Positions 7,236-27,872 of a stretch of DNA of 29,215 bases are shown piece by piece (position 1 is the stretch's first letter; each line of letters opens with the position of its first letter). This DNA is from Tolypothrix carrinoi HA7290-LM1. GTDB taxonomy: Bacteria > Cyanobacteriota > Cyanobacteriia > Cyanobacteriales > Nostocaceae. The translations under genes and the position numbers were made by a program. Location of the stretch: the NCBI GenBank assembly GCA_019358935.1, contig JAHHIK010000101.1, positions 1 through 29,215 on the forward strand, given 5' to 3'. The notes below the pieces were generated by a model. It had not been told where the DNA came from, ran no database searches, and saw only the letters and a program-made list of their open reading frames with translations.

Positions 7236-8933
7236 TTAATTTTTAATTCCCAAGCGATCGCCAAAATATTCACAATACAATTCACACAAAGGCATCACCT
7301 CGTTCCCCTGAAATTTCACTAACCCCATACTGCGAAGTTTAAAAGCTTCTGCTGTCCCCACATCTACAGGACAATCTACTGACAGCACTTCCTTGAATGC
7401 GGCTAGTAATTTCGCATTTTCCTGCAAATTCAGTAAATGACGGCGCAAATGGTCGCTGTAGGGTCCTTCCTCTGTCGGGGCAATTTGCTGAAGTTTTTCC
7501 AACGTCATCCTGTCCCGTGCAATTTGATACAAAGCTACCCGCGTTAAGTAAGGATGACCACCTACAAGCGTCATTAATTGCTCAACTTGTTTTTCAGTCC
7601 AATTAAGTCCATGTCGTTGCACTAACTCTTGCACCTGTGCTTGACTCAAGTCTGGCAATTCAATCGGCAATCCGACATTAAAGGGTGACTGATTGATATT
7701 CAGCGGGATGTAAACTTCTTGAGAATGCACAATTATTAACCTGAGCTTTTTCCAGACAGGATCGTTTTTTGCCCGTTCATGCCAAGCTCGTAATAGTCCA
7801 AAAAAATCATTAGCGATCGCCGGATGTTTGAACACCTCATCAACTTCATCCAAACCCAAAGCTACCGGGGTGTCAATAGAAGGTAATAAATACCTCTGAA
7901 AGTAATTTGTACATTTATTCTTACTACCCAAAACGCCTTTCCAATGTTCCTCTAGCTTCTCTGGTAATGAGAGCGCATCGGTAATACTCGCAGCAAACCA
8001 TTGTAAAAATAGATCCAAATCGCCGAGCAATTCTCCATCTACTGACTGAAAGTTCACAAAAGCAGTTTTATAGCTTTGTTTGCTTGCGTGGTCGAGGATT
8101 CGCGTCATTAACGAACTTTTGCCCATCTGTCGGGGTGCTTTGACGCGAATCAGCGCACCCGGTTTAAGAATAGCTTCATAACAGTCCGTTTCAATCGGCG
8201 GGCGATCGATATAATAGGCAGATTCCAAAGGTATTTGCCCTTCTGGTTGTTCTAAGGGAGATGCCGGTTGAGTATATATCACTTTTTCTGGCTTAGGCTT
8301 TGGCACTCGAACAGCGTCCCGATTTGAAGGTGATTCTACCTCATCTTGGTTCGGCTGTTGCTGGGGAATCGCTTTGAAATTTTTTATGCTTTTGAGTTTT
8401 GGAGTTAAAGATTCTGGAATGCCCTCTAAGTCAATGGCATTACAAGCAAATTTATAGGCATCCTCATAGGAACTGCCAGCACCAAGCGCATCATAAAACC
8501 CAACGGCAAATTCAATTGCAGCGCGATCGCCAATTGCCCGATTCATGCCAATCACGTAGTCAGCATATTGACAAATTGCCTCGGCTTGCGCTTCACTATA
8601 GCAAGCGTTTAACAAGACACATTCAATATTTTTAAATAACCCAAATAGCCCTGCCAGTGTCTGAGTTCTCACCAGCTGCATTTCCCCTGAGTTATTCTCT
8701 AAGGCTAAACCTTGACTCCCCGCTCCATGTCCGGAAAAGTGAACAATTTCAGGCTTACGATCCAACAAAGCCCGACGCAAGTCTTTCGGACGCACTGCTG
8801 ATGTAGAGAAAATTTCAAACTGATCTCGGTTTTTAGAGCGTTCCAAGCTAGCCCGAATTTCTCGTACTTCCTCATCCAGACGCAGCTGATTTGTATTCGT
8901 GGGATTTGCTGACAAAATCAGAATTTTCTTCAC
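7236..8933 (-). CDS. CHAT (caspase-like) domain + AAA_35 ATPase protein
   Basis: KILILSANP, LRLDEEVREI, HFSGHG and LNAC (His/Cys dyad intact); Walker A APRQMGKSS, Walker B LDEVD, GGHPYL; GTG start. Confidence 0.92.
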   Translation of the reverse strand: MKKILILSANPTNTNQLRLDEEVREIRASLERSKNRDQFEIFSTSAVRPKDLRRALLDRKPEIVHFSGHGAGSQGLALENNSGEMQLVRTQTLAGLFGLFKNIECVLLNACYSEAQAEAICQYADYVIGMNRAIGDRAAIEFAVGFYDALGAGSSYEDAYKFACNAIDLEGIPESLTPKLKSIKNFKAIPQQQPNQDEVESPSNRDAVRVPKPKPEKVIYTQPASPLEQPEGQIPLESAYYIDRPPIETDCYEAILKPGALIRVKAPRQMGKSSLMTRILDHASKQSYKTAFVNFQSVDGELLGDLDLFLQWFAASITDALSLPEKLEEHWKGVLGSKNKCTNYFQRYLLPSIDTPVALGLDEVDEVFKHPAIANDFFGLLRAWHERAKNDPVWKKLRLIIVHSQEVYIPLNINQSPFNVGLPIELPDLSQAQVQELVQRHGLNWTEKQVEQLMTLVGGHPYLTRVALYQIARDRMTLEKLQQIAPTEEGPYSDHLRRHLLNLQENAKLLAAFKEVLSVDCPVDVGTAEAFKLRSMGLVKFQGNEVMPLCELYCEYFGDRLGIKN

Positions 8934-9033
8934 GACGCTATCATCTCTTAAACACGGGCTTATTACCTAGATGTAGTTTACTACACCCTACTTGCAATGA
9001 ATTACTGACCGAAGAAGGGAAAAGGGGAAAGGG

Positions 9034-9123
9034 GAGGCAGTGCGGTCTTGGGGTCTCCCCAAGTGGAGGAGGCAGTGCGGTCTTGGGGTCTCCCCAAGTG
9101 AAGCACCTGCCGTCATCTGCCGT
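9034..9123 (+). mobile_element. 45-bp hairpin element nested in a copy of itself, inside a GGGAAA(A) tandem tract
   Basis: Outer 9034-9068 + 9114-9123; inner 9069-9113 GAGGCAGTGCGGTCTTGGGGTCTCCCCAAGTGAAGCACCTGCCGT. Confidence 0.82.
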
Positions 9124-9387
9124 GAAAGGGAAAAGGTGAGGAAGTAATTTTAAATATTTTTACTAATTTTAAATAACTTCGTCCCTTTCCCCCTTTTTCC
9201 TTTACCCTTTACCCCTCTTTTTTATTTAAGTTTTTAGCTTTAACTCACATTTTGCACAGAAGCAAAACGTAAACTGACTCTTAACACCAAAAAACTAGAT
9301 AATTAAGCGCTGCGATCGCCAAAATCTTCTAGGTTCTAACTCTAGGAAGAGATATAAAACAAAAATTACCAAAAAACTTAAGAGTTA

Positions 9388-9463: not shown

Positions 9464-10074
9464 ATGAAATTAATTAAGCAAACTAGCAAACTATTTTGAA
9501 GTTTAACCTTAGTTATGATTTTAACTATCACCAACGCCCGTGGTGTTTTGGCTGAAACTATTCATGTCAATTCGTCTTACACATACCTTGCCCAAGCGAG
9601 TACAGACTTAGGCGACCAAGTTAAGGCTAATCTCAAGAAAGCTCAAGGAAAAGCTCAAGAGACATACGGCAATATTACAGGCGATCGCAAAGCACAAATC
9701 GAAGGAAAAGTAAATCAAGCCTCGATGAACAGGGTGTGGGGTATAGGGTGTGGGGTGTGGGGACTCCTCCTTTAAAAGAGTCCTGTTCAAGTAAGGACGC
9801 GCTTACGAGCGAGTACTACGTATCGAAGAGTACATTTTTTTCTTTCTTCCCCTTAAAAGGGTCAATACTGACCAATCCTCCAGGGCGGTTTTCCCTGAAA
9901 CCTGCAACCCCAAACCTGCAACCCGCCCCGGAGGGGCTTTGGTGAGCAATTCGTTCAACTCAAGGCGGTTCTGAGTGGGATATTGAAGGTAAAACCCGCC
10001 AAGCCGAAAACAATATTCGTCGCTACCAAGCACGAGACGGCAAAGCAAATAACCTCAAAGAGGCTCTTGACTAA
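9464..10074 (+). pseudogene. CsbD-family stress protein pseudogene (premature stop plus insertion)
   Basis: MKLIKQTSKLF* (TGA 9497-99) in frame with ...KAQGKAQETYGNITGDRKAQIEGKVNQA; resumes after the insert as AIRSTQGGSEWDIEGKTRQAENNIRR...EALD*. Confidence 0.72.
9730..9941 (+). mobile_element. ~212-bp non-autonomous structured element (ATGAA^GT family), copy 1
   Basis: Interrupts csbD-like gene; clearly homologous to reverse complement of 24214-24432. Confidence 0.8.
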
Positions 10075-10206
10075 CGCCTAATTTCCAGTAAATATAGGGT
10101 AGCGATCGCTTGAGAAATCAACCAAAGTTAATTATCCAAAATTTCCATCGCTGGCGGTACTGTAATTGTCGGCAACTAAAGAAATTTCATTAATTTTGAG
10201 GAGTTC

Positions 10207-10256
10207 GTAGTGAGCGATTTATCGCTCAACTTCAACAGCTTTCATCCGCTCACTAC
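10207..10256. repeat. GTAG-type REP-like composite palindrome, possible terminator between convergent genes
   Basis: GTAGTGAGCG...CGCTCACTAC with internal TGAGCGAT-tt-ATCGCTCA. Confidence 0.6.
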
Positions 10257-10297
10257 AAACTCTTACAAATCCTCAAAACTAATGCGATCGCCCACTA

Positions 10298-11185
10298 CTA
10301 AAGCTGAAGAAGCCACTCGACAATTTGCGGATTTACCAAATCTGGTACTTCATCGTGGGGACAATGACCGGCGTTAGGAATAGGAACGATTTTGATTTCT
10401 TTGCCATTCTTACGTGCCTCCTCGTAAATCTTTGCCCCGGTGATTGGTGTCCAAGGATCATCTGCACCCCAAATTACCAACAAGGGACGCTTGACTTTGG
10501 GTAAGAGTTCCGCAGGTTGGGGACCTGGAGGTGCAGTGAGGATCGAAGCGAAAACTTGCTGCGCTCCCGGATCGCAAGAGGGAGCGTAAAGTAAATCGAC
10601 TAATTCATCGGTGACAGCTTGGCGATCGCGATAAACTTGATATAATGTCCGGCGAATTTGCTCCTTTTGACGGATGCGATTAAAAACAAATTTGCCTGAA
10701 ATTGGATGACCCACTAATCTGTTAAACGTTGACATGACAATGCGTAAGGGTGGGTTCAATTCATGAGGACGATGACTCAAACCACCCGCAGAATTAATCA
10801 AAACACCACCAGCAGCAATTTCCGGATGTTCCGCTACCACCATCAAGCTTAAAAGTGCGCCGATAGAGTTACCGATAAATACCGCAGGTTCGCTAATATG
10901 CGCTGTGCAAAAATCCTTAACTAATTCCACCCATACTTCTAAGGTGTAATTCAACGGGGGCTTATCAGAACCACCGAAACCCAACAAATCAATCGCAAAT
11001 ACTTGATAGCCTGCTGCTGCTAAAACCGGGATATTTTTCCGCCAATGTCCAATCGAAGCACCAAAGCCATGAATCAGCACCAGGGGGCGACCTGTACCCA
11101 TGACGGTATACTGAATTTTGTAGTCCTTCCAAGTCCAGAAGAGTTTTTCAAAGGTGGCTGTTGTTGGCTGGTTAGTTACAGTCAT
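10298..11185 (-). CDS. Alpha/beta fold hydrolase
   Basis: LIHGFGAS, DLLGFGGS, nucleophile GNSIG, WGADDPW, GHCPHDE. Confidence 0.93.
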   Translation of the reverse strand: MTVTNQPTTATFEKLFWTWKDYKIQYTVMGTGRPLVLIHGFGASIGHWRKNIPVLAAAGYQVFAIDLLGFGGSDKPPLNYTLEVWVELVKDFCTAHISEPAVFIGNSIGALLSLMVVAEHPEIAAGGVLINSAGGLSHRPHELNPPLRIVMSTFNRLVGHPISGKFVFNRIRQKEQIRRTLYQVYRDRQAVTDELVDLLYAPSCDPGAQQVFASILTAPPGPQPAELLPKVKRPLLVIWGADDPWTPITGAKIYEEARKNGKEIKIVPIPNAGHCPHDEVPDLVNPQIVEWLLQL

Positions 11186-11299
11186 TATTAAGATTTATAA
11201 AGTGTTTCTTAAATTAATAGTAATATTCTCTGACGTATATGGGTTAACAACAAAATGCTATTTTTGAATCAGTCCCAGTTGAGTTGAGATATTTGCTTT

Positions 11300-12253
11300 A
11301 TGAGTGTTTTTGCCAACCAACTCAAGACAGAGATTACCTACTCTATCTACCCCATCTCTGACGGTAAACCGATGGCAGAGAGCGACTCAGCACGCGATTA
11401 TCTGATTTATGGTGTTGAAGCTTTAAATATTTATTTCCAAGACCGAGATGACGTTTATGTATCAGGGAATCTGTTCATTTACTACAAAAAGGGTGTTCCC
11501 AGTGCGGTAATGGCTCCCGATGTGTTTGTAGTGTTTGGGGTTGAGAAGAAAAAGCGTCTCAGTTACAAAGTTTGGCAAGAAGCAGGTAAAGTCCCTAATT
11601 TTGTTTTAGAAATCACTTCCGCAGCTACTCAGGAAAATGACGAAACCGAAAAACCTCTGAAGTATGCGGCTTTGGGCGTGCAAGAATACTTTCAGTACGA
11701 CCCGACAGGGGATTATCTGACACCACAACTCAAGGGTTCGCGTTTGGTTGAGGGCAAATATGAATTCAGAAGGCAGCTATGCTGAGGGCAGAGGGCAGAA
11801 GGAACCCACCCTTAAAAGTGTGGGATTGAAGCAAGGACACCGTTTTTCCTCGCGCTCCTTTTCTCGAAAAACATCTTTTTTTTAAATGGGCTTTAAACCC
11901 ATAACTAAAGTTTTTTTTTAGAGGGCAGGAGACAGAATGCCTTCAGCATAGCTGCCTCCTGCCCTCTGCCTTTCTTTGTAATTTCCCCAAACCATTTACC
12001 TGATGGGGTTTTGTCAATTCATAGCGAACAATTAAGTTTAGATTTACGGCTAATTGATGGAGAATTGCGCTTCTACGATCCCCGTACTGGAAAGAAACTC
12101 TTGAGTTATCAAGAAACGGAACAAGCGCGACAGCAAGCAGAACAAGCGCGACGAGATGCAATACCTCGATTGTTGGAATTGGGATTGAGTGTGGAACAGA
12201 TTGCAGCTGCTCTTAGCTTAAGTGTGGAGGAAGTTAGGCATTTGGTTCTGTGA
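11300..12253 (+). pseudogene. Uma2-family (PD-(D/E)xK) endonuclease interrupted by a 213-bp insertion
   Basis: SDGKPMAES, APDVFVV, VLEITS, GVQEYFQYDP. Removing 11765-11977 gives continuous ...VEGKYEVISPNHLPDGVLSIHSEQL... (246 aa). Confidence 0.85.
11765..11977 (+). mobile_element. 213-bp non-autonomous structured element (ATGAA^GT family), copy 2
   Basis: Subterminal inverted arms AGGCAGCTATGCTGA / TCAGCATAGCTGCCT plus GGCAGA(A/G) repeats; excision restores Uma2. Confidence 0.82.
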
Positions 12254-12393
12254 ATAATAGAGCGATCGCTTTATCATTGCATTAGTCGAGTGCAGAAGCA
12301 AAAGAAAAATGGGAAAGGATAGGGATTGAAGAGATTGAAATTTTCTTTCTCCTCTAATCTTTATTCATAAGAGTGCAAAAGCTACTTTTGTAA

Positions 12394-12552
12394 TCGGTTG
12401 TTGGAATTGGGATTGAGTATAGAGCAGATTGCAGCTGCTCTGAGCTTAACTGTGGAGGAAGTCAGGCACTTGGTTCTGTGAATAATAGAGCGATCGCGCA
12501 CAAACATCTACTCGATAATAGAGCGATCGCTTTATCATTGCATTAGTCGAGT
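12394..12552 (+). repeat. Duplicate of the Uma2 3' end and downstream flank (12166-12291)
   Basis: Encodes LLELGLSIEQIAAALSLTVEEVRHLVL*; contains an extra ATAATAGAGCGATCGC duplication (12482-97 / 12515-30). Confidence 0.88.
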
Positions 12553-12559
12553 AGCGCAA

Positions 12560-13024
12560 TTATGATTCGGCGTGCATTACTACAACAGCATCGCCTTCTT
12601 GCAAGCTTATATCCTGGCTCAAATCTCCTTCTGACAAGTACTTATAGATATTTACGTTGATAATAGTTGGTTCTGAACTATTATTAATTCGTCGGCGAAC
12701 TTGAACCTGCCGAACATCCGCATGAACTGTTATTCCTCCAGCTATCTGAATCGCTCGAATTACAGTAGGTAACTGCTGTTTCGACACAGAACTCCCATCG
12801 GTTTGGGCTGCAACGCCAAGAAAATAACCTCCAGGACGCTGCACTTCACCGATGACCGCAATATGGATACTCTGTATTCTTTTTGGTTGAGTGTTGGGTT
12901 GAGCCTGACTCAACTGGTGTGTATGTGAAGTGGCATCAACAATAGGAGCAGCTAACGTCGGAATAACCATCATAGACACTGACAAAGTAGCACCTAAAAG
13001 CCCTATCCCAGTAAGGTATCGCAT
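12560..13024 (-). CDS. Secreted SLBB-domain protein (polysaccharide-export-like fragment)
   Basis: Signal peptide; VIGEVQRPGGY, TVIRAIQIAGG, DISLQEGDAVVV. Confidence 0.8.
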   Translation of the reverse strand: MRYLTGIGLLGATLSVSMMVIPTLAAPIVDATSHTHQLSQAQPNTQPKRIQSIHIAVIGEVQRPGGYFLGVAAQTDGSSVSKQQLPTVIRAIQIAGGITVHADVRQVQVRRRINNSSEPTIINVNIYKYLSEGDLSQDISLQEGDAVVVMHAES

Positions 13025-13264
13025 GAGAGTTGCTCTGAAAAATATAATATTGTCTGATTTATTTTGACGACTGGCACTGATTTATTCAAGTTCCTAGTTT
13101 TTACTTAGCAGCAAAATTGCCTGTTATATCTGCTGAGTAAGTACAGTTTTGTTAAGTTTCCTAAAGTATTTGTTTAAATGTTAGTTTCTCACCTGCCACG
13201 GGATTAATAGCTGAGGGAAGATTTCTTCCTATTAAACTTTTTACCCGGTTGGTGGGGTTGTGAG

Positions 13265-15313
13265 ATGACAAACTTTAATCATAGTTACTTGGCTCATTTT
13301 GGCAAAGTTTTTTTTGCTGCTGCTTATGTAGCAATAACTTCGCCAATGGCTTATGCTGCTTCAGGGTTCTCAACCACCACCGAACAAACACTGAATAATT
13401 CCCCAAGTCAACAACTTGTGGCTGATGAGTCCGGTGGTGACGATGACGACGATGACGATGATGACAGTGATGCCAAACAGGTTCAGGCAATGCCAGAAAC
13501 TGTCAAATCAGCGGTTTTACAAGACATATCCCAGCGTGCAGAAGTAGAAATGTCTTCTTTGCGGGTTGTTAAGGCGCAAAAGCAAAGTTGGTCAGATGGC
13601 TGTTTGGGTTTACAATCAGATGCAATTTGCACTCAATCTATAGTTCCAGGTTGGCAAGTAGTTGTTGCCAATGAACAGCAAATGTGGGTGTATCGCACTG
13701 ACGAATCAGGAAAAGTCGCCAAGCTGGATGAAAAATCAACTCAAGCTGTGACTGCTACGATGATGCGACGGACTTCTACGACTGCCCAAACTAGCAGTCG
13801 CACTACGATTCAGCGACGCACTCAAACTATGACTGTACGACGCAGTACTCAAGTTAGCGCTGCTAGTGTTTCTTCTGTGAAAGCGAAAACAAAAGGTTTT
13901 AGCCTTGCGATTTGGCAACCATCCGGTAACTTTTCGGAAGTAATTACTCGTATATCCATCAAGCCTAAACGTGGCAAAGGTTACTTAAAAGAGCGATTTT
14001 TGGGTGATTACAAATGCAAGATTAAACAAAAAACGAAATTTGTTAATGGATTCAAAGCAGGCGATCGCATTGTTGTCCGCTTGTACGATACCGAAAACCG
14101 CTTTATTGGCTACAGCGAATTTGAAGCAATATCTGCAAACACAACGGTTAACCTGATTTTGTCATCAAACCCAACAGAATACAAAGTTGTTCGCACTGTC
14201 TACGGTGTTGATGCAGACATGAACGGCATAATTGACGCGGGTACTACCACCTACGATTATTTCACCCAAGTGAATAATCAAAGTGTCAGCTTCCTCAGCA
14301 GTTCTCGAACAATCAAAGTTAGCCAATTTCAAGCACAAGGTTTATCGATTGCAGCAAATAGCGTTTATCCCGCTTCCTTTACCAAAGGTGAGTTTGCTGT
14401 CGTGCGTCAGTCAATGAGTGCCTTTAGTTCCAGTTTAGCAGCGGCTTTAAAAGCTGCTCCTGGCAGTTTGGTACAGGTGAATGATGTTAGCGATAACTCT
14501 AACTTTGACCTCGCGCAGATGATGATGGAATATCGAGAGGTAGGAGTCGCTAACGGTATCCAAGTCAAGTTTTCTGACGTACCGACAAATTATTGGGCAA
14601 AAGATTTTATTGCTGAGTTAGCAGCGATGGAAGTTCTCGAAGGTTTTCCTGATGGAACTTTCCGTCCAGATGAACAAGTGACTCGCGCTCAATTTGCGGC
14701 GATGATTAGTCAAGCCTTTGAAAAGGTAAAAATCCGCAATGCCATCAAATTTAATGATGTTTCTAGTAAATATTGGGCTTACAATGCGATTCGCGAAGCT
14801 TATGCAACTGGCTTTTTAGGGTCTTCTGGCAATCAGTTTAACCCTACCGCTAACCTTTCTCGCCTGGAAATTTTGCTTTCAATCGCACGCGGACTCAACT
14901 ATACTTTCAGTGGTTCCACGGAGACAATATTAGCAGCTTACACCGATGCTAGCAGCATTCGCAGTGATGTTAAGAATGCGATCGCTGCACTAACCCAACG
15001 AGGTATTGTAGTCAATTATCCAAATATCGAGTCTATCAATGCTGAAAAGGTAGCAACGAGAGCAGAAGTCTCTGCATTGCTATATAAAGCATTAGTTAGC
15101 ACCGGCGATGTTGCAGATATATCCTCGCAGTATGCTGTGGGACAAAAAGAACAACCGCAAGTTGAGGAACGTGCTGAAGTTCAGGGCAAAAAGCCTCGTC
15201 AACATTGTAACCAAGGCATTGGTAATGGTGCTGAAGGCTGCGACCCTGGCAATTCTCATCCGCATGGTGGTAGCAACGACGAAGGGGGACGAACTCCAGG
15301 CGGTAAAAAGTAA
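13265..15313 (+). CDS. Secreted S-layer homology (SLH) domain protein
   Basis: Signal peptide AYAA; WSDGCLG...CTQ...PGWQVVV module; FSDVPTNYWA, GFPDGTFRPD, TRAQFA, ATRAEV SLH motifs. Confidence 0.88.
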   Translation: MTNFNHSYLAHFGKVFFAAAYVAITSPMAYAASGFSTTTEQTLNNSPSQQLVADESGGDDDDDDDDDSDAKQVQAMPETVKSAVLQDISQRAEVEMSSLRVVKAQKQSWSDGCLGLQSDAICTQSIVPGWQVVVANEQQMWVYRTDESGKVAKLDEKSTQAVTATMMRRTSTTAQTSSRTTIQRRTQTMTVRRSTQVSAASVSSVKAKTKGFSLAIWQPSGNFSEVITRISIKPKRGKGYLKERFLGDYKCKIKQKTKFVNGFKAGDRIVVRLYDTENRFIGYSEFEAISANTTVNLILSSNPTEYKVVRTVYGVDADMNGIIDAGTTTYDYFTQVNNQSVSFLSSSRTIKVSQFQAQGLSIAANSVYPASFTKGEFAVVRQSMSAFSSSLAAALKAAPGSLVQVNDVSDNSNFDLAQMMMEYREVGVANGIQVKFSDVPTNYWAKDFIAELAAMEVLEGFPDGTFRPDEQVTRAQFAAMISQAFEKVKIRNAIKFNDVSSKYWAYNAIREAYATGFLGSSGNQFNPTANLSRLEILLSIARGLNYTFSGSTETILAAYTDASSIRSDVKNAIAALTQRGIVVNYPNIESINAEKVATRAEVSALLYKALVSTGDVADISSQYAVGQKEQPQVEERAEVQGKKPRQHCNQGIGNGAEGCDPGNSHPHGGSNDEGGRTPGGKK

Positions 15314-15354
15314 TACGACATCTCGTTTGTCGTAGAGGCTGACAAGACAAAGAC

Positions 15355-15395
15355 AAAAGGTAAAGGGTAAAATTTATTACCTTTTACCTTTTTTT
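15355..15395 (+). terminator. Rho-independent terminator, probably bidirectional
   Basis: AAAAGGTAAAGGGTAA-aattta-TTACCTTTTACCTTTT + T run between convergent genes. Confidence 0.65.
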
Positions 15396-15476
15396 ATAGG
15401 TTTTATATCATGCAATAAAGACGTTCCGGACCGAACGTCTCTACAATACAATATGTGTAATAAGCCTGTGATGATA

Positions 15477-16532
15477 TTATTCTGGTGTTAGCACTCCGTT
15501 ACCATTTTTTGTTTGATTACCTTGTGTATAAACTTCTCTAATCGGAAAGGGAATTTTAATGCCTTCTTCCTGATACTTTTTATGCAATTGCTTAATAAAT
15601 TTGTGTTTAGCAATGCGTTGGTCAAAGAATTCGTTCACCCGCATAAATACCGTAAAATCAATACTAGAATCTCCAAAAGTATGAAATCTGATAAACGGTT
15701 CATTTTCTAATAAGTCGGGTGAAACTTCTTGCATTACTTTTTTTGCAACCTCTACAGTTACTCTTTCAACTTGCTCAAGGTCGCTTTCGTAATCTACACC
15801 AACATTAATCGTTAATGTAATTTCCTTAACTGGTAAATGGTAATTAGTAAAAATCGCTGAGGCTAGTTTAGAATTAGGGACAATTATCACATTATTTGAA
15901 AGCTCTTTTATCGTCGTATTCCGCCATGTAATATCTGTAATATATCCTTCGTGTTTATCTTCTAATTTTACATAATCTCCGGTTCTAACTTGCTTAGAAA
16001 TAATTAAATAAACACCCGAAAATAAATTTGCAAGTGTATCTTGAAGTGCCAAACCAACTGCTAAACCACCAATTCCTAAAGTGGTAAGTATCGGTGTAAT
16101 TTGAATGCCAATCGTTTGTAAGATGATTAATGTTCCTAAAATTAAAATGGTAGTTGTGGCAAGGTTAGAAAGTAGTGATGCAGAAACTCCTTGTGTTCTC
16201 CGACTATATAATCTAACAAAACCAGCAATCAATCGGGCAATAACTAAGGTAATTGAATACAAAAAAACAATTGTCAGGATTGTTTGCAATACCTCGGCAA
16301 TATCTGGTATTAAGCTTCGATAAGCACGAATTGCTCCATAAAATCCAGCTAGCACAAACCAAGTAAAGGTGATGCGCTGTAAGGAGCGAAATAATATTTC
16401 ACTACCTGGTAACCGTTGGCGAGCAGCAAATGTTTTCAATTTACTAAAAACGATTTTTTCAGCAATTATTCCAGCTAGTAAGCCAGCTAAAATAAATCCC
16501 AACGGTAGAATCCATTGCATCAACATAAGCAA
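15477..16532 (-). CDS. Small-conductance mechanosensitive channel (MscS family)
   Basis: Multiple TM helices, LGIGGLAVGLALQDTLANLFSG, IIVPNSKL, GIKIPFP. Confidence 0.93.
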   Translation of the reverse strand: MLMLMQWILPLGFILAGLLAGIIAEKIVFSKLKTFAARQRLPGSEILFRSLQRITFTWFVLAGFYGAIRAYRSLIPDIAEVLQTILTIVFLYSITLVIARLIAGFVRLYSRRTQGVSASLLSNLATTTILILGTLIILQTIGIQITPILTTLGIGGLAVGLALQDTLANLFSGVYLIISKQVRTGDYVKLEDKHEGYITDITWRNTTIKELSNNVIIVPNSKLASAIFTNYHLPVKEITLTINVGVDYESDLEQVERVTVEVAKKVMQEVSPDLLENEPFIRFHTFGDSSIDFTVFMRVNEFFDQRIAKHKFIKQLHKKYQEEGIKIPFPIREVYTQGNQTKNGNGVLTPE

Positions 16533-16772
16533 ATCCCAATTTCAAGAAGATTATCAATTATGTCTGGAATATTTTCAATTTGTGATTTTCAATTCAATGC
16601 CTCCGTAATTGTGACGTTATAACCAATTTTATCGACTCAAAAATACACTTAGGTTTATTTGCTACTTGACTGTGTTTGGTTACAGTTTAAATTATACTTG
16701 GCTGAGTCAAAGAGCAACTATCACAGTTTGGGTAGTTGGCATTATTGGCGGTTAAAACTGAAAATTAATTAT

Positions 16773-17690
16773 ATGGACTTGCCAATTATTTATCACCCAG
16801 ATTACGTTGCACCACTACCTGAAGGACATCGCTTTCCGATGTTAAAGTTCCGGCAATTATACGAACTGCTGTTAGCTGACGGTGTGGCACAATTACAACA
16901 ATTCCACATCCCTGAATCTCCGCACCCTGAGTTGATAGAGTTAGTTCACAATCCAGACTACGTACAAGCTTACTGTAACGGAACGCTAGACCCAAAAGCA
17001 CAACGGCGCATTGGTTTACCTTGGAGTCCGGCGTTGGTAAATCGTACTTGTGTGGCGGTAGGTGGTACAATACTTACGGCTAAACTCGCACTAACTCACG
17101 GTTTGGCGTGTAATACTGCTGGTGGTACTCATCACGCCTTTCCCAGTTATGGTTCTGGTTTTTGTATTTTCAATGATTTAGCGATCGCCTGTCGCGTCTT
17201 ACAAAAACTTAACCTCATAAAAAAAATCCTGATTGTCGATTTAGATGTCCATCAAGGTGACGGCACCGCTTTTATCTTTCAAGATGACGACAGTGTTTTT
17301 ACTTTCTCGATGCACTGCGAAGTCAACTTTCCCGGTACTAAACAAAAAAGCGATCTTGATGTTCCCCTACCAACAGGAATGGAAGATGATGCTTATTTGC
17401 AAACATTGGCAAATTATTTACCATATTTATTGTCAGATGTCAAGCCAGATTTGATTTTATATGATGCTGGTGTCGATCCGCATGTAGGCGATCGCTTAGG
17501 AAAGTTAGCTTTAACTGACACTGGCATTTTCCGTCGGGAAATGCAGGTATTAAGTACCTGTGTAGCTGCTGGTTATCCCGTTGCCTGCGTTATCGGTGGT
17601 GGGTACGCGGATGATATCAAGTCGCTTGTGTGGCGTCACTCGTTGGTGCATCGCGCTGCGAGTCAGATTTATCAGCAGTATGGACTTTAG
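16773..17690 (+). CDS. Histone deacetylase family protein (Zn-dependent deacetylase/amidohydrolase)
   Basis: HRFPM, GGTHHA, GFCIFND, DLDVHQGDGT, YDAGVD, GGGY; ATG 16773 preferred to TTG 16659. Confidence 0.93.
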   Translation: MDLPIIYHPDYVAPLPEGHRFPMLKFRQLYELLLADGVAQLQQFHIPESPHPELIELVHNPDYVQAYCNGTLDPKAQRRIGLPWSPALVNRTCVAVGGTILTAKLALTHGLACNTAGGTHHAFPSYGSGFCIFNDLAIACRVLQKLNLIKKILIVDLDVHQGDGTAFIFQDDDSVFTFSMHCEVNFPGTKQKSDLDVPLPTGMEDDAYLQTLANYLPYLLSDVKPDLILYDAGVDPHVGDRLGKLALTDTGIFRREMQVLSTCVAAGYPVACVIGGGYADDIKSLVWRHSLVHRAASQIYQQYGL

Positions 17691-17993
17691 GCGATTTTAA
17701 GTAAGTTTCCGTGTTGGCATTTGGAACACTATAACTGAACACTTTATTGGGTTGGTTGCAGAAAAAGTTGGGGATAACGACGGTGAGTTCTTGGTCAAAG
17801 TTGATTATGCTCAACTGTCACGATGAAAAGGCTGGATTTGAAGGTTTTTTTCAGCTTTTGTCTTTTGTTTCAACAGCCAGATAAAAGTTTAGATGAGGAT
17901 GGTGAAAAGGTGATTAAAAGTTATTTGGTAAAAGAACATATTTCTATCATATTGAAGTACAAGTTCCTCCTGTGACAGAATCTAAGAAGATAG

Positions 17994-19698
17994 ATGCGAT
18001 TTTATCAGCGATCGCCTCCACTCAAGCTGTCATCGAGCTTTGACTTTATTCAGGTTGATGAAGTACAAGATACTCATTTATCTGAATATGAAATTGTCCA
18101 ATGTTTAGCTTATCGTACTGGCAATATTGCCATGATTGGTGATTTAGACCAAACTATTTACGAGTGGAGAGGTTCTGAACCTGATAAATTTATCAGTCAA
18201 TTTAAACAAGAGTTTCAACCTCAAGAATATTCTCTGACTTGGAATTACCGCGCTACTCAAACCTTACTTAATGCTGCTTCTGGTTTTGCTGACTGTTTTG
18301 AACAAAGATACACAAAAATTACCCCTGCACCTAATTGTGAGGTTGGAGAATTAATTCCAGTTTATGCAGGTCAAAATGAATTAGATGAAGCTAAATGGAT
18401 TGCGACACAGATTCAAAAGTTAGCTAAGAATGACCCCAATTTTCTCTATAACCGTATTGCTGTTTTAACTAGAAATCATAAACGAATTGAGATTATTACT
18501 AAACTTTTAGAAAAGTTAAATATTCCCTGTGTAACAGTTGAGCAACATCAATTCTTCATGCGTCAGGAAGTTAAAGATGCTTTGGCTTATGTACGATTAA
18601 TATTAAATCCTTTTGATACAGGTTCAATGCGTCGAATGTTACTGCGTCCAAATCGGGGAATTGGTTCTGTGACTATTGAGAATGTCATCAAAGAGGGAGA
18701 AGCTTGTGGGTTTAAACTCACTGATATGGCTTCAACTCAAACTTTTATTGATGGTGATGCTTTTAGCAATTTACTAACCGCTTATAATTCTGGCACAATT
18801 GTTGTTTTTGATGTGGAAACAACTGGTTTTTCAGCGAGTCAAGATGAAGTTATTGAAATTGCTGCATCTTTATTAGTTGCTGGGAAACTAGAAGATGATA
18901 ACGGCACATGCTCAAAAAGTCGGTTTATTCACTCCTAAATTTCAATGGGCAGATACTTGGGATTTAGCTAAACGCTTTATAGAATCAGATAGCTATAGTC
19001 TTGAAGCTTTGGCAACTAAGTTAAAGCTGACTCAATTACCCAGTCATCGTGCAATTGACGATACACGCACAACTGTAGAATTTTTAGCAATTTTAATACC
19101 TTTAGTTAAAGTTCATGCTGACTATCGCCAAGCTTTAGTCTATCGTTATGGGCAAGAATTTGAAAATTTAGCTCATGGTATTGAAAGTTGGAGAGATGCA
19201 AGCCAAAAATTACGTCCAGCAGATTTATTAGGTAAAATTTTAGTTGAGTCTGGTTTATATGACTATTATCACCAGGACGAACCAAAACGCCTAGAAAATA
19301 TCAAACGGCTAGTAAAGATTTTTCAAGCACAGGATGATTTAGAACTTCATCCAGATACAGCACTCAGAAGTATTATTGAGTATATTGCATTAGCGAAAAA
19401 CTTAGATCAAATTTCTCAGGATAATAATGAAGTCCTTGTTATCACAATTCATCAATCAAAAGGGTTAGAATTCGATACAGTTTTTCTATCAGGTATATCT
19501 GAAGATGAATTTACCACTTATTTCAGTGTGCGTGATAGTAACGTAGAAGAGGAAAAACGTCTATTTTATGTGGCTATGACAAGGGCAAAAAAACGCTTGT
19601 TTATATCGTTTTTTATGAAAGATTCTAAAAACTACTCGAAGTCAAAAAGTCAGTTTATTAGTTCACTACCTTCTGAATATTTAATTGATGTTGTTTAG
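17994..19698 (+). pseudogene. UvrD/PcrA-like helicase with inserted DEDDh exonuclease domain; 5'-truncated and frameshifted
   Basis: No Walker A; VDEVQD, GDLDQTIYEWRG, NYR, TIHQSKGLEFD, EEKRLFYVAMTRAK. Exo motifs FDVETTG and HRAIDD are split across frames near 18895-18938. Confidence 0.82.
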
Positions 19699-19979
19699 TA
19701 CGCTCAATTCTTGGGTCTTCCAACTTTTGAAAAGTATTTGAGTATAGTATCGTCGAAGTTCGCAGTCATAATTTGTAAATCTTAAGATGCGATCGCATCG
19801 CCTGAAATGCATTCGTAAAAGTATAACCCTTTAATATACCATTACTTTAGAGCCAATTTTGATGCGTTTGCCCTGATACACCTGAGAAATTTATAGCCGC
19901 ATCTGCTGCATCCCAAAACACCACAAGACAACCTCAAAGGCACAAAGTATAAAACCTTAAAAGCTAAAAAATAGTTTAA

Positions 19980-20206
19980 ATGCTGGTGTCGATCCGCATG
20001 TAGGCGATCGCTTGGGAAAGTTAGCTTTAACTGACACTGGCATTTTCCGTCGGGAAATGCAGGTATTAAGTACCTGTGTAGCTGCTGGTTATCCCGTTGC
20101 CTGCGTTATCGGTGGTGGGTACGCGGATGATATCAAGTCGCTTGTGTGGCGTCACTCGTTGGTGCATCGCGCTGCGAGTCAGGTTTATCAGCAGTATCGA
20201 CTTTAA
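19980..20206 (+). repeat. Second copy of the deacetylase gene 3' end (17464-17690)
   Basis: 227 bp, 4 mismatches by manual alignment; similarity continues ~20 bp past the stop. Confidence 0.95.
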
Positions 20207-20424
20207 AGGATTTTAGTAAGTATCCGCTCAAGTAATTTATAACCGATTTTCAAAAAACAAATGTCGGTGAGAGAAAGCGGCTTTTGCACTATTTGCGAAA
20301 GAATAGAAAGATTTTCCAACAGATTTTATATTGCGATCGACTCAATTTAATGTCAATTTATATACTTAGCCTACATAGCTTTTAGTCGAGTACATAGAAA
20401 ATTTTGGCATATATAACGTAGATT

Positions 20425-21897
20425 ATGAAAATTATCAAAACAGTAATTCTTGCTGGTATGGTTGCTTGTGCGATCGTGTTTGGAACTCCAGCACTTTCCC
20501 ATATTGTTGAACATCATGAGTATAAGCAAGCATCAAATCCGATGCTCAATAACGGTTCCAATACCGTGTCAGCATTTCATTACCATAATGCAATTCATTC
20601 CTCTACCGACGCTGATTCTGCTCTTGCTCCCGCAAACAGCAAGCGTCTTATTTGGAAAAATAAAGCTTTTGGAGCGATTGTTAGAAAGAATGTTGTTGAC
20701 CTTACCCCAAAAGAGAAACGGGCATTCGTTAATGCTGTGCGGGCATTAAAAAATATTGTACCAAGGGGTAGCCGTACTAATATCTATGACCAGTTTGTTG
20801 CAGTGCATGTGGGAGCTATGGGTTTAATGTACGATGATGCCCAAGGTCCTGCTGCCGGACATGATGGTGCCCATGAAAGCGCTATATTGCTACCGTGGCA
20901 TCGTGAGTTGGTATACCGATTTGAAAAAGCCTTGCAATCAGTAAACCCCAATGTAACGATTCCCTACTGGGATTGGACAGACCCTAAGGCGTTGTCAGTT
21001 ATCTTTAGTGATGATTTTATGGGACCGAATGGTGAAGGAGTAACCCTTAACATCCCGATTATCGAAGGTGGATTTGCTGTGTCGCTTGGTGATGGTCAAC
21101 AACCAAACTCGAATCTTCCGGGTTCAGGTAATGAAGGGGGATCTGATATGTCGCTTGCTGATGGTCAACAAGCAAACCCCAACATCCAGACGGTTACTGT
21201 TCAAGGGGGACCTGTTCAGTCTGGTCCTTTTTCAGCAGCTAGTGGATGGACTGTGAACCCAGACTTACATTTCAAGTCGTCATCAAGAGAAACATTTGGC
21301 GATCAAATCTTACGCTTTCTGCAAGTGCCTCCGACAAATAGTTACCCTGTTCCTAAAGAAGATATAGAGCAAGTCCTTGCCATTGACAACTATGAAACTT
21401 TTCGCCCAGCTTTAGAAGGTTTTATCAAAGTAGATAGCTCTACTGGACAACAAACACCTGGAATCTATTTGCATAACTATTCTCATAGCTTGGTTGGTGG
21501 AGGTACTTTCGACCCTGCTGTAGGTCGTCCTGAACCTCTAGGCACAATGGCTGACCTTGCTACTTCTATCAACGATCCAGTATTTTGGCTAGTTCATTCC
21601 AATGTGGATCGCCTTTGGGCTGAATGGCAGGCAAGTGGGCATGAAGGTAGCGATTATTATCCTGCCGTTGGTGGACATTATGGAGAGAATCTTAACGACC
21701 GGATGTGGCCTTGGGACGGAGGTGAGTCTACACCAGCGAATTGGGGTCCAGGGGATTCGTTATCCTTACTACCTGTTTTTTCAGCAAATGATATTGTCAC
21801 ACCAAGAGACACTCTGGATTTCCGAAAGTATCGCTATACCTATGACACTCTTATTTTTCCGGTTCGCAAACCTACTTGGAAAATAAATAGTGACTAA
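20425..21897 (+). CDS. Secreted tyrosinase-family (type-3 copper) protein
   Basis: Signal peptide; VRKNV, YDQFVAVH, GAHE...LPWHR (CuA), PYWDW, HNYSH and DPVFWLVHSNVDRLW (CuB). Confidence 0.9.
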   Translation: MKIIKTVILAGMVACAIVFGTPALSHIVEHHEYKQASNPMLNNGSNTVSAFHYHNAIHSSTDADSALAPANSKRLIWKNKAFGAIVRKNVVDLTPKEKRAFVNAVRALKNIVPRGSRTNIYDQFVAVHVGAMGLMYDDAQGPAAGHDGAHESAILLPWHRELVYRFEKALQSVNPNVTIPYWDWTDPKALSVIFSDDFMGPNGEGVTLNIPIIEGGFAVSLGDGQQPNSNLPGSGNEGGSDMSLADGQQANPNIQTVTVQGGPVQSGPFSAASGWTVNPDLHFKSSSRETFGDQILRFLQVPPTNSYPVPKEDIEQVLAIDNYETFRPALEGFIKVDSSTGQQTPGIYLHNYSHSLVGGGTFDPAVGRPEPLGTMADLATSINDPVFWLVHSNVDRLWAEWQASGHEGSDYYPAVGGHYGENLNDRMWPWDGGESTPANWGPGDSLSLLPVFSANDIVTPRDTLDFRKYRYTYDTLIFPVRKPTWKINSD

Positions 21898-21928
21898 CAA
21901 GCACATAAGTTAAGGAAGTATTCGCCTC

Positions 21929-22159
21929 TGTACAATGCTAGTGTTGACCCTCATCTAGGCGGCTTGGGAAAGTTAGCTTTAACCGACACTGGCATTTTCC
22001 GCCGGGAAATGCAGGTATTAAGTACCTGTGTAGCTGCTGGCTAGCCCGTCGCCTGTGTTATCGGTGGCGGGTACGCTGATGATATGAAGTCGCTTGTGTA
22101 GCGTCACTCCAAGAGTGCATCGCGTCGCTAATCAGATTTATCAGCAGTATCGCCTCTAA
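21929..22159 (+). pseudogene. Third, decayed copy of the deacetylase gene 3' end
   Basis: LYNASVDPHLGGLGKLALTDTGIFRREMQVLSTCVAAG*PVACVIGGGYADDMKSLV*RHS..; many third-position changes, two stops, one indel near the end. Confidence 0.9.
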
Positions 22160-22317
22160 CAAAAGGAGGAGATATAAAGATTTACATGTCTACCGATCCC
22201 TAGATGTTTTTGATTTATTTTTAGATGATTCTTAATAGTTAATTAACTATCACGTCCCAGCAAAAAATCGTCTAATTCGATACAATTTATAAGCTATAAG
22301 AGGCGAGGAGAAGTAAA

Positions 22318-23457
22318 GTGGTGCTATCAAAAGGCTTTGAAATTGAGATGTACACAGGCACGCCTCAAGGAGAAATCGTGGGACTCTCCGACAAAATTGT
22401 GGCATCTTTAGACGGATTTGTGCGAGAGCCAGATAGCCGCAATGTGGAATATATAACCGCACCATTTCACAATTATGAGCAGCTATTGTGCGCTCTGTTG
22501 CGTCCGAGGCAGCAACTGCGTAATTACCTGAAACAATTGGGCAATTACACGCTGATTCCGGGAAGTACTTTATCTTTAAGTGGTAGCGATCGCTTTTATC
22601 GTTCTGACCCCAACAATCCATACCACGATTACATTGAGCAAACCTACGGTACCAAAGTCGTCACCGCTAGCGTTCACATCAATGTCGGCATCAGCGACCC
22701 GGAATTATTAATGCGGGCATGTCGAATTATCCGCTTAGAAGCGCCTTTGTATTTAGCTTTAAGTGCCTCGTCTCCCTTTATCGATGGCAAGGCAACCGGG
22801 TATCACTCCACCCGTTGGGGATTATTCCCGCAAACACCTGAAGGAGTGCCGTTATTTGCCAGCCACGCTCATCATATTGAATGGGTGGAAAATCAACTGG
22901 CTGCTGGTACAATGCAAAATGTTCGTCATTTGTGGGTATCGGTACGACCAAATGGCGATCGCCGTCCTTACGATTTAAATCGCTTAGAACTGCGAATTTG
23001 TGACTTAGTAACAGATCCAATCGCTTTACTAGCAATTACCGCCTTGCTAGAAGCGCGTTTATTACAGATAATAGAAAATCCGCATATCGATCCGCTTACC
23101 CAAAGCAACTTCTCACCTGAAGAACTAATAACCCTCACAGCAAGCAACGAAGCAGCAGCAGCGTCTCTTAGCCTCGATGCTCAACTAATACATTGGCTTG
23201 ATGGCAGAAGCATTCTTGCCAGAGATTGGATTGCCGAATTAAGTAATGAAGTTTCGGCGATCGCCAAACGTCATGGCTTTGGCTGTTTCCTTTCGCCCTT
23301 ACAAAAAATACTCCGCGAAGGCAATGAGGCTCAACAGTGGCTGCAACTGCATTCTGTAGGTTTTGATACGACTTGCGTCATGACCCAGGCTATTCGTGCC
23401 ACGCGAGAACGAGAAATTGAACTAGAAAACAAATTGTGTTCCTCCCTAGTGGCTTAA
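22318..23457 (+). CDS. gshA: Glutamate--cysteine ligase, cyanobacterial type
   Basis: LSKGFEIEMYTG, REPDSRNVEY, TASVHIN, NRLELRICD; adjacent to trmL. Confidence 0.88.
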   Translation: MVLSKGFEIEMYTGTPQGEIVGLSDKIVASLDGFVREPDSRNVEYITAPFHNYEQLLCALLRPRQQLRNYLKQLGNYTLIPGSTLSLSGSDRFYRSDPNNPYHDYIEQTYGTKVVTASVHINVGISDPELLMRACRIIRLEAPLYLALSASSPFIDGKATGYHSTRWGLFPQTPEGVPLFASHAHHIEWVENQLAAGTMQNVRHLWVSVRPNGDRRPYDLNRLELRICDLVTDPIALLAITALLEARLLQIIENPHIDPLTQSNFSPEELITLTASNEAAAASLSLDAQLIHWLDGRSILARDWIAELSNEVSAIAKRHGFGCFLSPLQKILREGNEAQQWLQLHSVGFDTTCVMTQAIRATREREIELENKLCSSLVA

Positions 23458-23720
23458 GACTGCACCTTTTGTGTGGAAGTAAGTGATTAATTGCTCTGAA
23501 AAGAAAAAAAGTCAGCTTCTTTACATAAAATTTAATATTTCTTCATAAAAGCAAAAAAAACTCCCAGATATTCCTCTGGGAGGATTATTATTTTGTTTTA
23601 AATATCTAATCATTGGTATTTCGAGAGAAATATTAATAAAAGTTATATATAGAGAGTATCTATACGTAGAGATGGCAGTTTCGATACATTGATTGTTTGT
23701 ATACATTTATCCGCTCGCAA

Positions 23721-24182
23721 ATGCCTCAGGTAGTTTTAGTTAATCCGCAAATTCCTCCGAACACAGGTAATATTGCCCGTACTTGTGCAGCTACGGGTAC
23801 TGAATTACATTTGGTTGGACCATTGGGCTTTGAAATTAGCGATCGCTATTTAAAAAGGGCAGGTTTAGATTACTGGCCCTATGTAAAGCTACACTGTCAC
23901 GAATCTCTAGAAGCGTTTCAAGTTGTACATCAGCAGCGTGGTGGTAGATGCTTGGGCTTTAGCGTTTGTGGTAGTTTTAATTATGCAAACTTTCAGTTTC
24001 AAGCTTCGGACTGGCTGCTATTTGGCAGTGAAACTACTGGCTTACCGTCAACAGTTTTGTCTACTTGCGATGCTACTCTGCATATTCCTATGTTCGAGAA
24101 GAATGTTCGCAGCTTGAATCTTTCAGTAAGTGTTGCCGTGAGTCTGTTTGAAGCCCGTCGTCAGTTAGGCTATTTACAGTAA
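23721..24182 (+). CDS. trmL: tRNA (cytidine(34)-2'-O)-methyltransferase, SpoU family
   Basis: PQIPPNTGNIARTCA, LKRAGLDYW, LLFGSETTGLP, RSLNLS. Confidence 0.92.
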   Translation: MPQVVLVNPQIPPNTGNIARTCAATGTELHLVGPLGFEISDRYLKRAGLDYWPYVKLHCHESLEAFQVVHQQRGGRCLGFSVCGSFNYANFQFQASDWLLFGSETTGLPSTVLSTCDATLHIPMFEKNVRSLNLSVSVAVSLFEARRQLGYLQ

Positions 24183-24213
24183 GCGCGACCAAAAAAGGAT
24201 AAAGTATGTTTAC

Positions 24214-24432
24214 CAAAGCCCCTTCGGGGCGGGTGTGGGGTGTGGGGTGTGGGGTGTAGGGGAAAACCCCGCCCCGAAGATCCAATGGTTAAGCGGCTCT
24301 CCCTTTAGGGAGAAAAAAGAAACAAGAATGTGTTTTGAGATACATAGTACGAAAACGGGCGTGTCCGGGAAGTGAAACTCCGCACCTTTTGGGCGGAGTT
24401 TCTACACCCCACACCCTACCCCCTACACCCTG
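24214..24432 (-). mobile_element. 219-bp non-autonomous structured element (ATGAA^GT family), copy 3
   Basis: Reverse complement reads gATGAA-CAGGGTGTAGGGG...GTACTATGTATC...ACCCGCCCCGAAGGGGCTTTG-GTAA. Confidence 0.8.
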
Positions 24433-24495
24433 TTCATCTAGGTTGCCGCGAACATACTTAAATTAGTATCATAAGTCTTATTTGAGATACACTTA

Positions 24496-27798: not shown

Positions 27799-27872
27799 GG
27801 CTCAGTAGCTCAGTTGGTTAGAGCGTGGGACTCATAAGCCTGAGGTCGTGTGTTCGAGTCACACCTGAGCCA
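27799..27872 (+). tRNA. trnM: tRNA-Met (CAT), elongator type, CCA not encoded
   Basis: Acceptor GGCTCAG/CTGAGCC, D arm GCTC/GAGC, loop CTCATAA, T arm GTGTG-TTCGAGT-CACAC. Confidence 0.92.

Follow-up and report, generated by a model that had tools for sequence, protein, structure and literature searches.

How do three short repeats of similar layout come to lie, apparently as insertions, in one stretch of the Tolypothrix carrinoi HA7290-LM1 genome, and what moves them? The stretch analysed, referred to here as the window, is the 29,215-nt contig C101 of an assembly of 7.96 Mb (G000; 42% GC, 184 contigs, numbered with a C). Its gene content, together with plasmid matches in Nostoc and Calothrix (seven records), suggests a heterocyst-forming cyanobacterium. 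The original prediction described the repeats as elements built from complementary heptamer arms, hairpins, a GGAC(A/G)C motif and a T-rich core. All of these parts were present, but two of the left boundaries were misplaced: copy 1 starts at 9725 and copy 3 ends at 24437, as judged from an empty site and from relatives of the elements. The elements are very probably palindrome-associated transposable elements (PATEs), that is, gene-less members of the IS200/IS605 group with IS608-type ends, which insert after TNAC and are likely moved by an IS608-like TnpA acting in trans. Direct support comes from their boundaries, precise insertion, recent spread, covarying guides and hairpins, and a resident IS608-like TnpA.

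All three elements had been placed at ATGAA^GT(A/G)A, but comparison of filled and empty sites ruled out ATGAA as the target. Copy 2 has three more copies in G000 (98–100% identical) at other places. The four share the right flank GTAA, and only in the window copy is ATGAA found to the left, as host coding sequence: it belongs to TAT GAA in the interrupted Uma2 frame. An empty orthologous site (L026) reads TATCAA^GTAATT, and contigs of two public sequencing runs (X2 and X5) skip exactly 11765–11977 (213 bases). As predicted, removing these bases restores an open Uma2 frame, joining KYE to VISP. Copy 3 is single-copy in G000, and a 99%-identical relative (G009) lacks 24214–24437 to the base, ATGAA included, while keeping TTAC (plus strand TTTAC^CTAGG; L042). 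Two insertions in G009 have cleanly empty counterparts in G000. No target duplication was found in any of these four comparisons (copy 2, copy 3 and the two G009 insertions), which bears out the earlier claim on that point. TTAC or TGAC was retained in four empty sites, the one on C106 reading TGAC where the filled site has TTAC. Another copy splits the P-loop of an adenylyl-sulfate kinase-like frame (GLSGA^GKTT, read by eye) with nothing added.

From these empty sites and the P-loop split it follows that each element stands after TNAC on the strand opposite to that first assumed, ends with a tetramer such as TCAT or TGAA, and causes no duplication. In copies 1 and 3 ATGAA forms the element's own end and departs with it. 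The junctions of these two copies are ambiguous by one base. A twin of copy 1 on C98, 99.5% identical, has different flanks, and an X2 contig carries a relative that matches 9725–9945 with foreign sequence ahead of 9725. No exact empty site for copy 1 was found in 30 relatives or in five close genomes; one low-depth X2 contig skips 222 bases with four other letters and does not fix the junction. A loose pattern (ATGAA, 195–225 nt, CTTT(G)GTRA) occurs 64 times genome-wide and therefore does not define the family, for which we relied on profile searches.

The cut sites covary with internal guides. Passages of PMC5934647 describe how a guide tetramer at the 5' foot of each IS608 hairpin pairs with the cleavage tetramer (AAAG:TTAC and GAAT:TCAA), and passages of PMC3201880 describe guide bases 1 and 2 pairing crosswise with site bases 1 and 2, site base 3 being unpaired. 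We drew guides, of the form NA(A/G)N, from 113 G000 profile hits and 72 loci of relatives (101 parsed, 87 distinct). The right guide predicted the tetramer found in the tail in 72 of 87 distinct cases (shuffled guides: mean 26.3, sd 3.9, maximum 41 in 10,000). When ends were called without the guide, guide base 1 paired with site base 2, and guide base 4 with site base 4, in 48 of 62 elements each; shuffling gave means of 21 and 22 and maxima of 33 and 34. A pair between guide base 4 and site base 4 is known from structural studies of IS608 and fits both IS608 pairs; this out-of-register pair is not expected from a plain helix. Seven right guide/site classes were recovered by script (GAAA:TCAT, CAAT:TGAA, AAAT:TTAA, CAAG:TGAC, GAAT:TCAA, GAAG:TCAC and AAAG:TTAC) and an eighth, AAAA:TTAT, by eye in L107 and L108. 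At the left end parsing gave 59 distinct guides, 50 of them with an assigned target; guide and target agreed in 37 of these 50 (shuffled mean 18.4, sd 3.2, maximum 30), with CAAG:TGAC (17), AAAG:TTAC (14) and GAAG:TCAC (5) as classes. Both IS608 pairs thus occur in the family. The weight of this evidence lies in the number of classes, the draws being non-independent. Of the two enzyme groups originally proposed, the code points to IS200/IS605; IS110 is unsupported, since guide and cut site pair out of helical register, as they do with TnpA.

On the top strand the elements run from TNAC ^ through a heptamer arm, left guide, left hairpin, A-tract and central hairpin to a GTCC motif, right guide, right hairpin, complementary heptamer arm and terminal tetramer ^. 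In the mechanism we propose, TnpA would bind the two hairpins and each guide would pair with its cut site (guide base 1 with site base 2, 2 with 1, and 4 with 4), after which the top strand would be released as a single-stranded circle and pasted at a new TNAC. The arms would be linkers that have expanded, are tolerated and often fold out; the central hairpin would be a structure of single-stranded DNA, perhaps assisting complex assembly. As expected for PATEs, the elements combine insertion 3' of a fixed target that remains outside them, no duplication, IS605-related hairpins, guide pairing and no transposase gene. They contain no open reading frame (ORF) of at least 80 aa, other than frames running across them.

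The family is real, mobile and recently active. An iterated nucleotide profile recovered 43 near-full-length copies in G000, forming 33 groups at 90% identity, six of which have 2–4 members. A covariance model of the core, a check that had been suggested for related genomes, matched in 32 of 40 other genomes of the taxonomic family, with up to 71 matches per genome (up to 90 candidates were scored in each). In a phylum-wide sample matches occurred in 14 of 100 other genomes, all within the same order. One member (L168) lies on a contig labelled Acetobacteraceae (CAZZZY010000189.1), which is probably mis-binned because its neighbours look cyanobacterial.

The linkers between cut sites and hairpins are where the family departs most visibly from IS608. 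The median distance was 71 nt from target to left guide (16–94, n = 50) and 40 nt from right hairpin to end (12–62, n = 72), compared with 19 nt from target to hairpin and 10 nt at the right in the IS608 passages of PMC3201880. The linkers are filled with heptamer arrays of many unit types (GGGTGTG-type in copies 1 and 3, GGCAGAA-type in copy 2). Left ends of 16–17 nt without arms exist (L092, L096 and L168), which makes the arms look like an expanded IS608-type linker. In all three window copies the left arm can fold into an internal stem of 12–16 bp. The idea that the left arm always folds back to restore IS608 spacing held only in part, since 19 of 50 left linkers fold better than their shuffles (z below −2); the TTAC/TTGAA subfamily does not.

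[quoted passage not shown] We regard that reading as extremely improbable. The arms are subterminal, number from none to seven units and change unit type, the ends themselves are not inverted repeats, and the empty sites without duplication largely refute it; a one-sided fixed tetramer with guide covariation is also unexplained by DDE or IS110 chemistry.

We take the arms to be the short tandemly repeated repetitive (STRR) heptamers of heterocystous cyanobacteria. As in the STRR repeats of the PMC4692102 passages, the arms are such heptamer arrays, most often of about four units; unlike them, most G000 arrays lie outside the elements. Of 2,372 heptamer arrays in G000, 70 belong to this family and 43 to a sister family, which rules out the elements as the source of most arrays (113 of 2,372).

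Several other armed structures were seen in G000. The sister family has 41 right ends (for example C13:101372 and C52:32834–33116), which follow the target TTAT and end TCAA; its arms are GGCAGAA and its guides AAAA on the left and GAAT, in a hairpin loop, on the right; at C52 its right two-thirds is repeated three times in tandem. Outside both families there are 138 neighbouring inverted array pairs, and C22:78300, C12:67108, C104:11580, C110:11851 and C151:5868 look like further IS605-type mini-elements. Upstream of C38:7007 (minus strand), the RNA region before a broken iscB is cut at GGTCA by an armed element with GGGAGCA arms and a different core. Of two copies at C19:90078–90293 and C44:38301–38516, one lies within a host (TTACCCA)n array, with TTAC in every unit, and the other is followed by an apparent second right arm.

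The hairpins of the core covary. In 21 hand-structured cores 74% of cells were paired, against 55% in shuffled and 26–53% in slid controls, so that the predicted covariation in the shared hairpins was found, and there were 74 double changes in hairpins against 30 in shuffled cores. RNAalifold recovered three pairs only in these cores, with no global consensus fold, and the helices were therefore set by hand (14 pairs, one of them misplaced at columns 58/69 and paired in 3 of 21). The central element is a hairpin whose two stems flank a GAGA/CGA internal loop. Among 56 distinct cores (44 of 113 hits missed the anchor), its lower stem was paired at 278 of 392 positions (shuffled 215, maximum 242) and its upper stem at 136 of 168 (shuffled 92, maximum 111). 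The loop was GTA, ATA, GCA or AAA in 39 of 56. Triloops of this kind, like tandem G-A pairs, form stable structures in single-stranded DNA (the triloops in DNA rather than RNA), and both lie on the top strand. A second hairpin strengthens the complex at the left end of IS608 in the PMC3201880 passages, and the central hairpin is possibly analogous to it. It may instead act as a terminator, since on the other strand it precedes a T-run. The commonest family hairpin was found letter for letter in non-cyanobacterial assemblies as a canonical right end (GAAT, hairpin, 10 nt, TCAA), and also in fused terminal-only elements there. Those at L166, L169 and L171 are about 50 bp long, with TTAC, a short linker, one hairpin and a canonical TCAA tail, which is what deletion of the core between two identical hairpins should leave.

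The original prediction had also offered a structured noncoding RNA, and the covarying central hairpin would suit elements that are also, or mainly, stand-alone loci for guide RNAs of the obligate mobile element-guided activity (OMEGA) type. A transcript of the core and right end would then run into the flank and direct a TnpB or IscB nuclease in trans, with a long duplex formed by the arms. Matches to the TnpB domain number 51 in the genome and those to the IscB/IsrB domain 7, but the core profile had no matches at these loci, and at the insertion sequence (IS) ends of 30 TnpA loci it matched nothing beyond the hairpins. Right tails measured 39–42 nt in 40 of 72 elements, yet their lengths rise in steps of about 7 nt, a pattern that slippage would produce. 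The triloops favour DNA, and neither a global fold nor a scaffold-model match was found: Rfam gave no relevant match in the window and none at E ≤ 1, HEARO included. Folding z-scores were −0.5, −3.8 and −6.8 for copies 1, 2 and 3, so copy 1 is no more structured than its shuffles. A structured noncoding RNA had no support from any of these tests, and we consider an OMEGA locus very unlikely, although one insertion site has different cores in G000 (C176, about 8585–8797; L005) and G009 (C5; L056). Flanks and arms there are near-identical and the cores strongly different: one copy may have converted or replaced another, or the site may have been hit twice. A related and very unlikely scheme is a self-spreading guide-RNA cassette, in which TnpA would move a copy and a transcript (central hairpin, right end, an arm of about 40 nt paired to the left arm, and flank) would load, in trans, a TnpB or IscB of the host genome that then cuts empty sites. 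If true, repair would explain how arms and cores are swapped between copies while the arms stay matched, and the guide would be a CRISPR-like repeat/anti-repeat built from STRR heptamers.

We return to the PATE reading and its candidate helper. G000 has seven matches to PF01797 (Y1 transposase), with five TnpAs of the IS200/IS605 type, including one on C90. The C90 element is 1,819 bp long, with target TGAC, left guide CAAG, right guide GAAT and end TCAA, and its left end begins like several mini-elements. Its TnpA, encoded by a gene that starts at C90:7059 on the minus strand, is intact (132 aa) and aligns without gaps to the ISHp608 transposase (E = 3.8e-59). Behind tnpA lies a stretch with no PF07282 match, probably a disrupted tnpB. 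Three high-copy relatives carry related elements. A C90-like TnpA was the top hit in three of five high-copy genomes, and no such score was obtained in five element-free genomes, a co-occurrence too weak to use. That the elements are non-autonomous, as first proposed, agrees with the absence of a transposase gene inside them and the presence of Y1 TnpA elsewhere in the genome; we infer mobilisation by TnpA.

A different Y1 enzyme could be the mover. Two divergent genes (C51:17950–18294 and C46:32571–32882) have QxxHH-like C-terminal motifs and repeated flanking palindromes, and resemble subclass 1.2 of the PMC6006769 passages. The mover would then be a tyrosine transposase associated with repetitive extragenic palindromes (REP; TnpA-REP/RAYT or subclass 1.2), and the elements would be units like REP doublets (REPINs) or bacterial interspersed mosaic elements (BIMEs). 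REP enzymes cut far from the hairpin, which would suit the long linkers. The REPIN and BIME units of the PMC6006769 and PMC3116915 passages, the latter reporting a RAYT and REPINs for Nostoc punctiforme, share with our family the Y1 enzyme class, a guide at the hairpin foot and non-autonomy. They differ in that our two hairpins are in direct rather than inverted orientation, our guides are not GTAG or GTGG, and our ends are fixed and follow the IS608 code. The hairpins match IS608-type ends and not, as judged by eye, the C51 and C46 palindromes, and we hold this origin to be very improbable.

Several observations weigh against PATEs moved by an IS608-like TnpA. All 10 relatives checked had Y1 transposases, five of these relatives lacking the element, so that the presence of such an enzyme does not single out a helper. 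No ORF-bearing parent with this core, of the kind the original prediction had suggested seeking, was found among G000 partial hits, 30 TnpA loci of five high-copy relatives or a pattern scan (10 loci, four of them at contig ends without an IS body); the C90 TnpA is therefore a candidate helper only. No excision or circle was seen in this strain, for which contigs only were available. The linkers are far longer than those of IS608, and the copy-2 subfamily has a right hairpin without the bulged T that IS608 needs and a left guide in the loop. The guide rule fits copy 2 at both ends and copy 3 at its right end only, there being no clean internal left guide; copy 1, which has spread as two near-identical copies, fits at neither end (right guide GAAC, no clean left guide). 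Overall the rule failed at 15 of 87 right and 13 of 50 left ends, in some cases because the scan window was short or the end had decayed, and when ends were called blind to the guide only 43 of 71 agreed exactly. The elements are also kin, so the permutation figures overstate significance.

The class and its mechanism are already known; unusual here are the linker length, the swappable complementary arms and the covarying central hairpin. IS608 (ISHp608; PMC3201880 and PMC5934647, in the passages used) likewise has its target tetramer beyond the left end and its terminal tetramer within the right one, carries a guide tetramer 5' of each hairpin, follows the same pairing code and makes no duplication. 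Our family differs in having neither tnpA nor tnpB, linkers of about 70 and 40 nt rather than 19 and 10, eight or more codes at the right end and three or more at the left, and subfamilies with a perfect hairpin or a guide in the loop. The Haloquadratum walsbyi PATEs of the PMC3119063 and PMC4810608 passages are likewise too short for a transposase, have near-terminal palindromes related to IS605-type elements and no target duplication, form homogeneous and heterogeneous subfamilies, and are targeted by smaller repeats. In contrast, our family is cyanobacterial, with heptamer arms between palindrome and end and a covarying central hairpin, and those passages report no guide/cut-site covariation. 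Cyanobacterial MITEs (Nezha, the Anabaena PCC 7120 MITE, those of Fewer 2011 and Anabaena 90, and MaeMITEs) resemble it in size range, host group and gene disruption, but Nezha has TIRs and direct repeats in the PMC3184786 passages. Those passages also tabulate the Anabaena PCC 7120 MITE of Wolk 2010, of about 224 bp; our family may overlap with it or another cyanobacterial MITE family. No description of the family was found in the literature searched, which covered few subscription papers.

The family would form a natural retargeting library for the IS608 mechanism, with at least eight right-end and at least three left-end codes in one lineage. It suggests that TnpA can work across linkers of 40–70 nt and on modified hairpins, a point of relevance to the geometry of the transpososome and to the engineering of target choice. 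Widespread Nostoc-type repeats, whose ends look inverted to MITE finders, would be reassigned to single-strand transposition, and heptamer repeats would gain one concrete vehicle, for a small share of them. The elements break host genes (Uma2, CsbD and cysC) and by IS608 logic could excise cleanly. Coordinates are given in Table 1.

Table 1. Elements, cleavage sites, hairpins and interrupted genes in the window.
Feature	Position	Strand	Remark
Copy 1	9725..9941	− (transposing top strand)	217 bp; ends TCAT (window ATGA, 9725–9728)
Copy 1 target/left cleavage tetramer TCAC	9942..9945	−	Outside element; in both G000 copy-1 elements; by analogy with relatives' empty sites
Copy 1 right-end hairpin, degenerate guide	9761..9788	−	GAAC; GAAA expected
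CsbD-like gene cut by copy 1	9515..9724	+	PF05532, E = 1.8e-10
Copy 2	11765..11977	− (top strand)	213 bp; ends TGAA; GGCAGAA-type arms
Copy 2 target/left cleavage tetramer TTAC	11978..11981	−	Remains in empty site
Copy 2 left guide AAAG	11891..11894	−	Predicts TTAC; in loop of hairpin 11886–11902
Copy 2 central two-stem hairpin region	11843..11872	−	Upper stem degenerate in copy 2
Copy 2 right guide CAAT and right hairpin	11805..11828	−	Guide 11825–11828, predicts TGAA
Uma2-family gene split by copy 2	11300..12253	+	PF05685, E = 1.1e-14; uninterrupted orthologues
Copy 3 target/left cleavage tetramer TTAC	24210..24213	+	G009 empty site, L042
Copy 3	24214..24437	+ (top strand)	224 bp; ends TCAT; intergenic, after SpoU methylase gene (PF00588)
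Copy 3 central hairpin	24330..24359	+	Upper stem with ATA triloop
Copy 3 right guide GAAA and right hairpin	24374..24398	+	Predicts TCAT

The downstream half of the CsbD-like gene is out of frame, and the gene is probably a pseudogene. Beside copy 1, at 9006–9224, lies a fourth heptamer-armed unit, in which TGAC is followed by AAAGGGG arms around a short AT-rich palindrome, with nested repeats of about 45 nt in the left arm; no guides were identified in it, and relatives occur at C23, C98, C152, C138 and C16. Elsewhere the window contains a 21-bp tandem repeat array that produces overlapping frames (1411–1764), a UvrD-like helicase split over two frames (17994–19698) and a tRNA gene (27799–27872).

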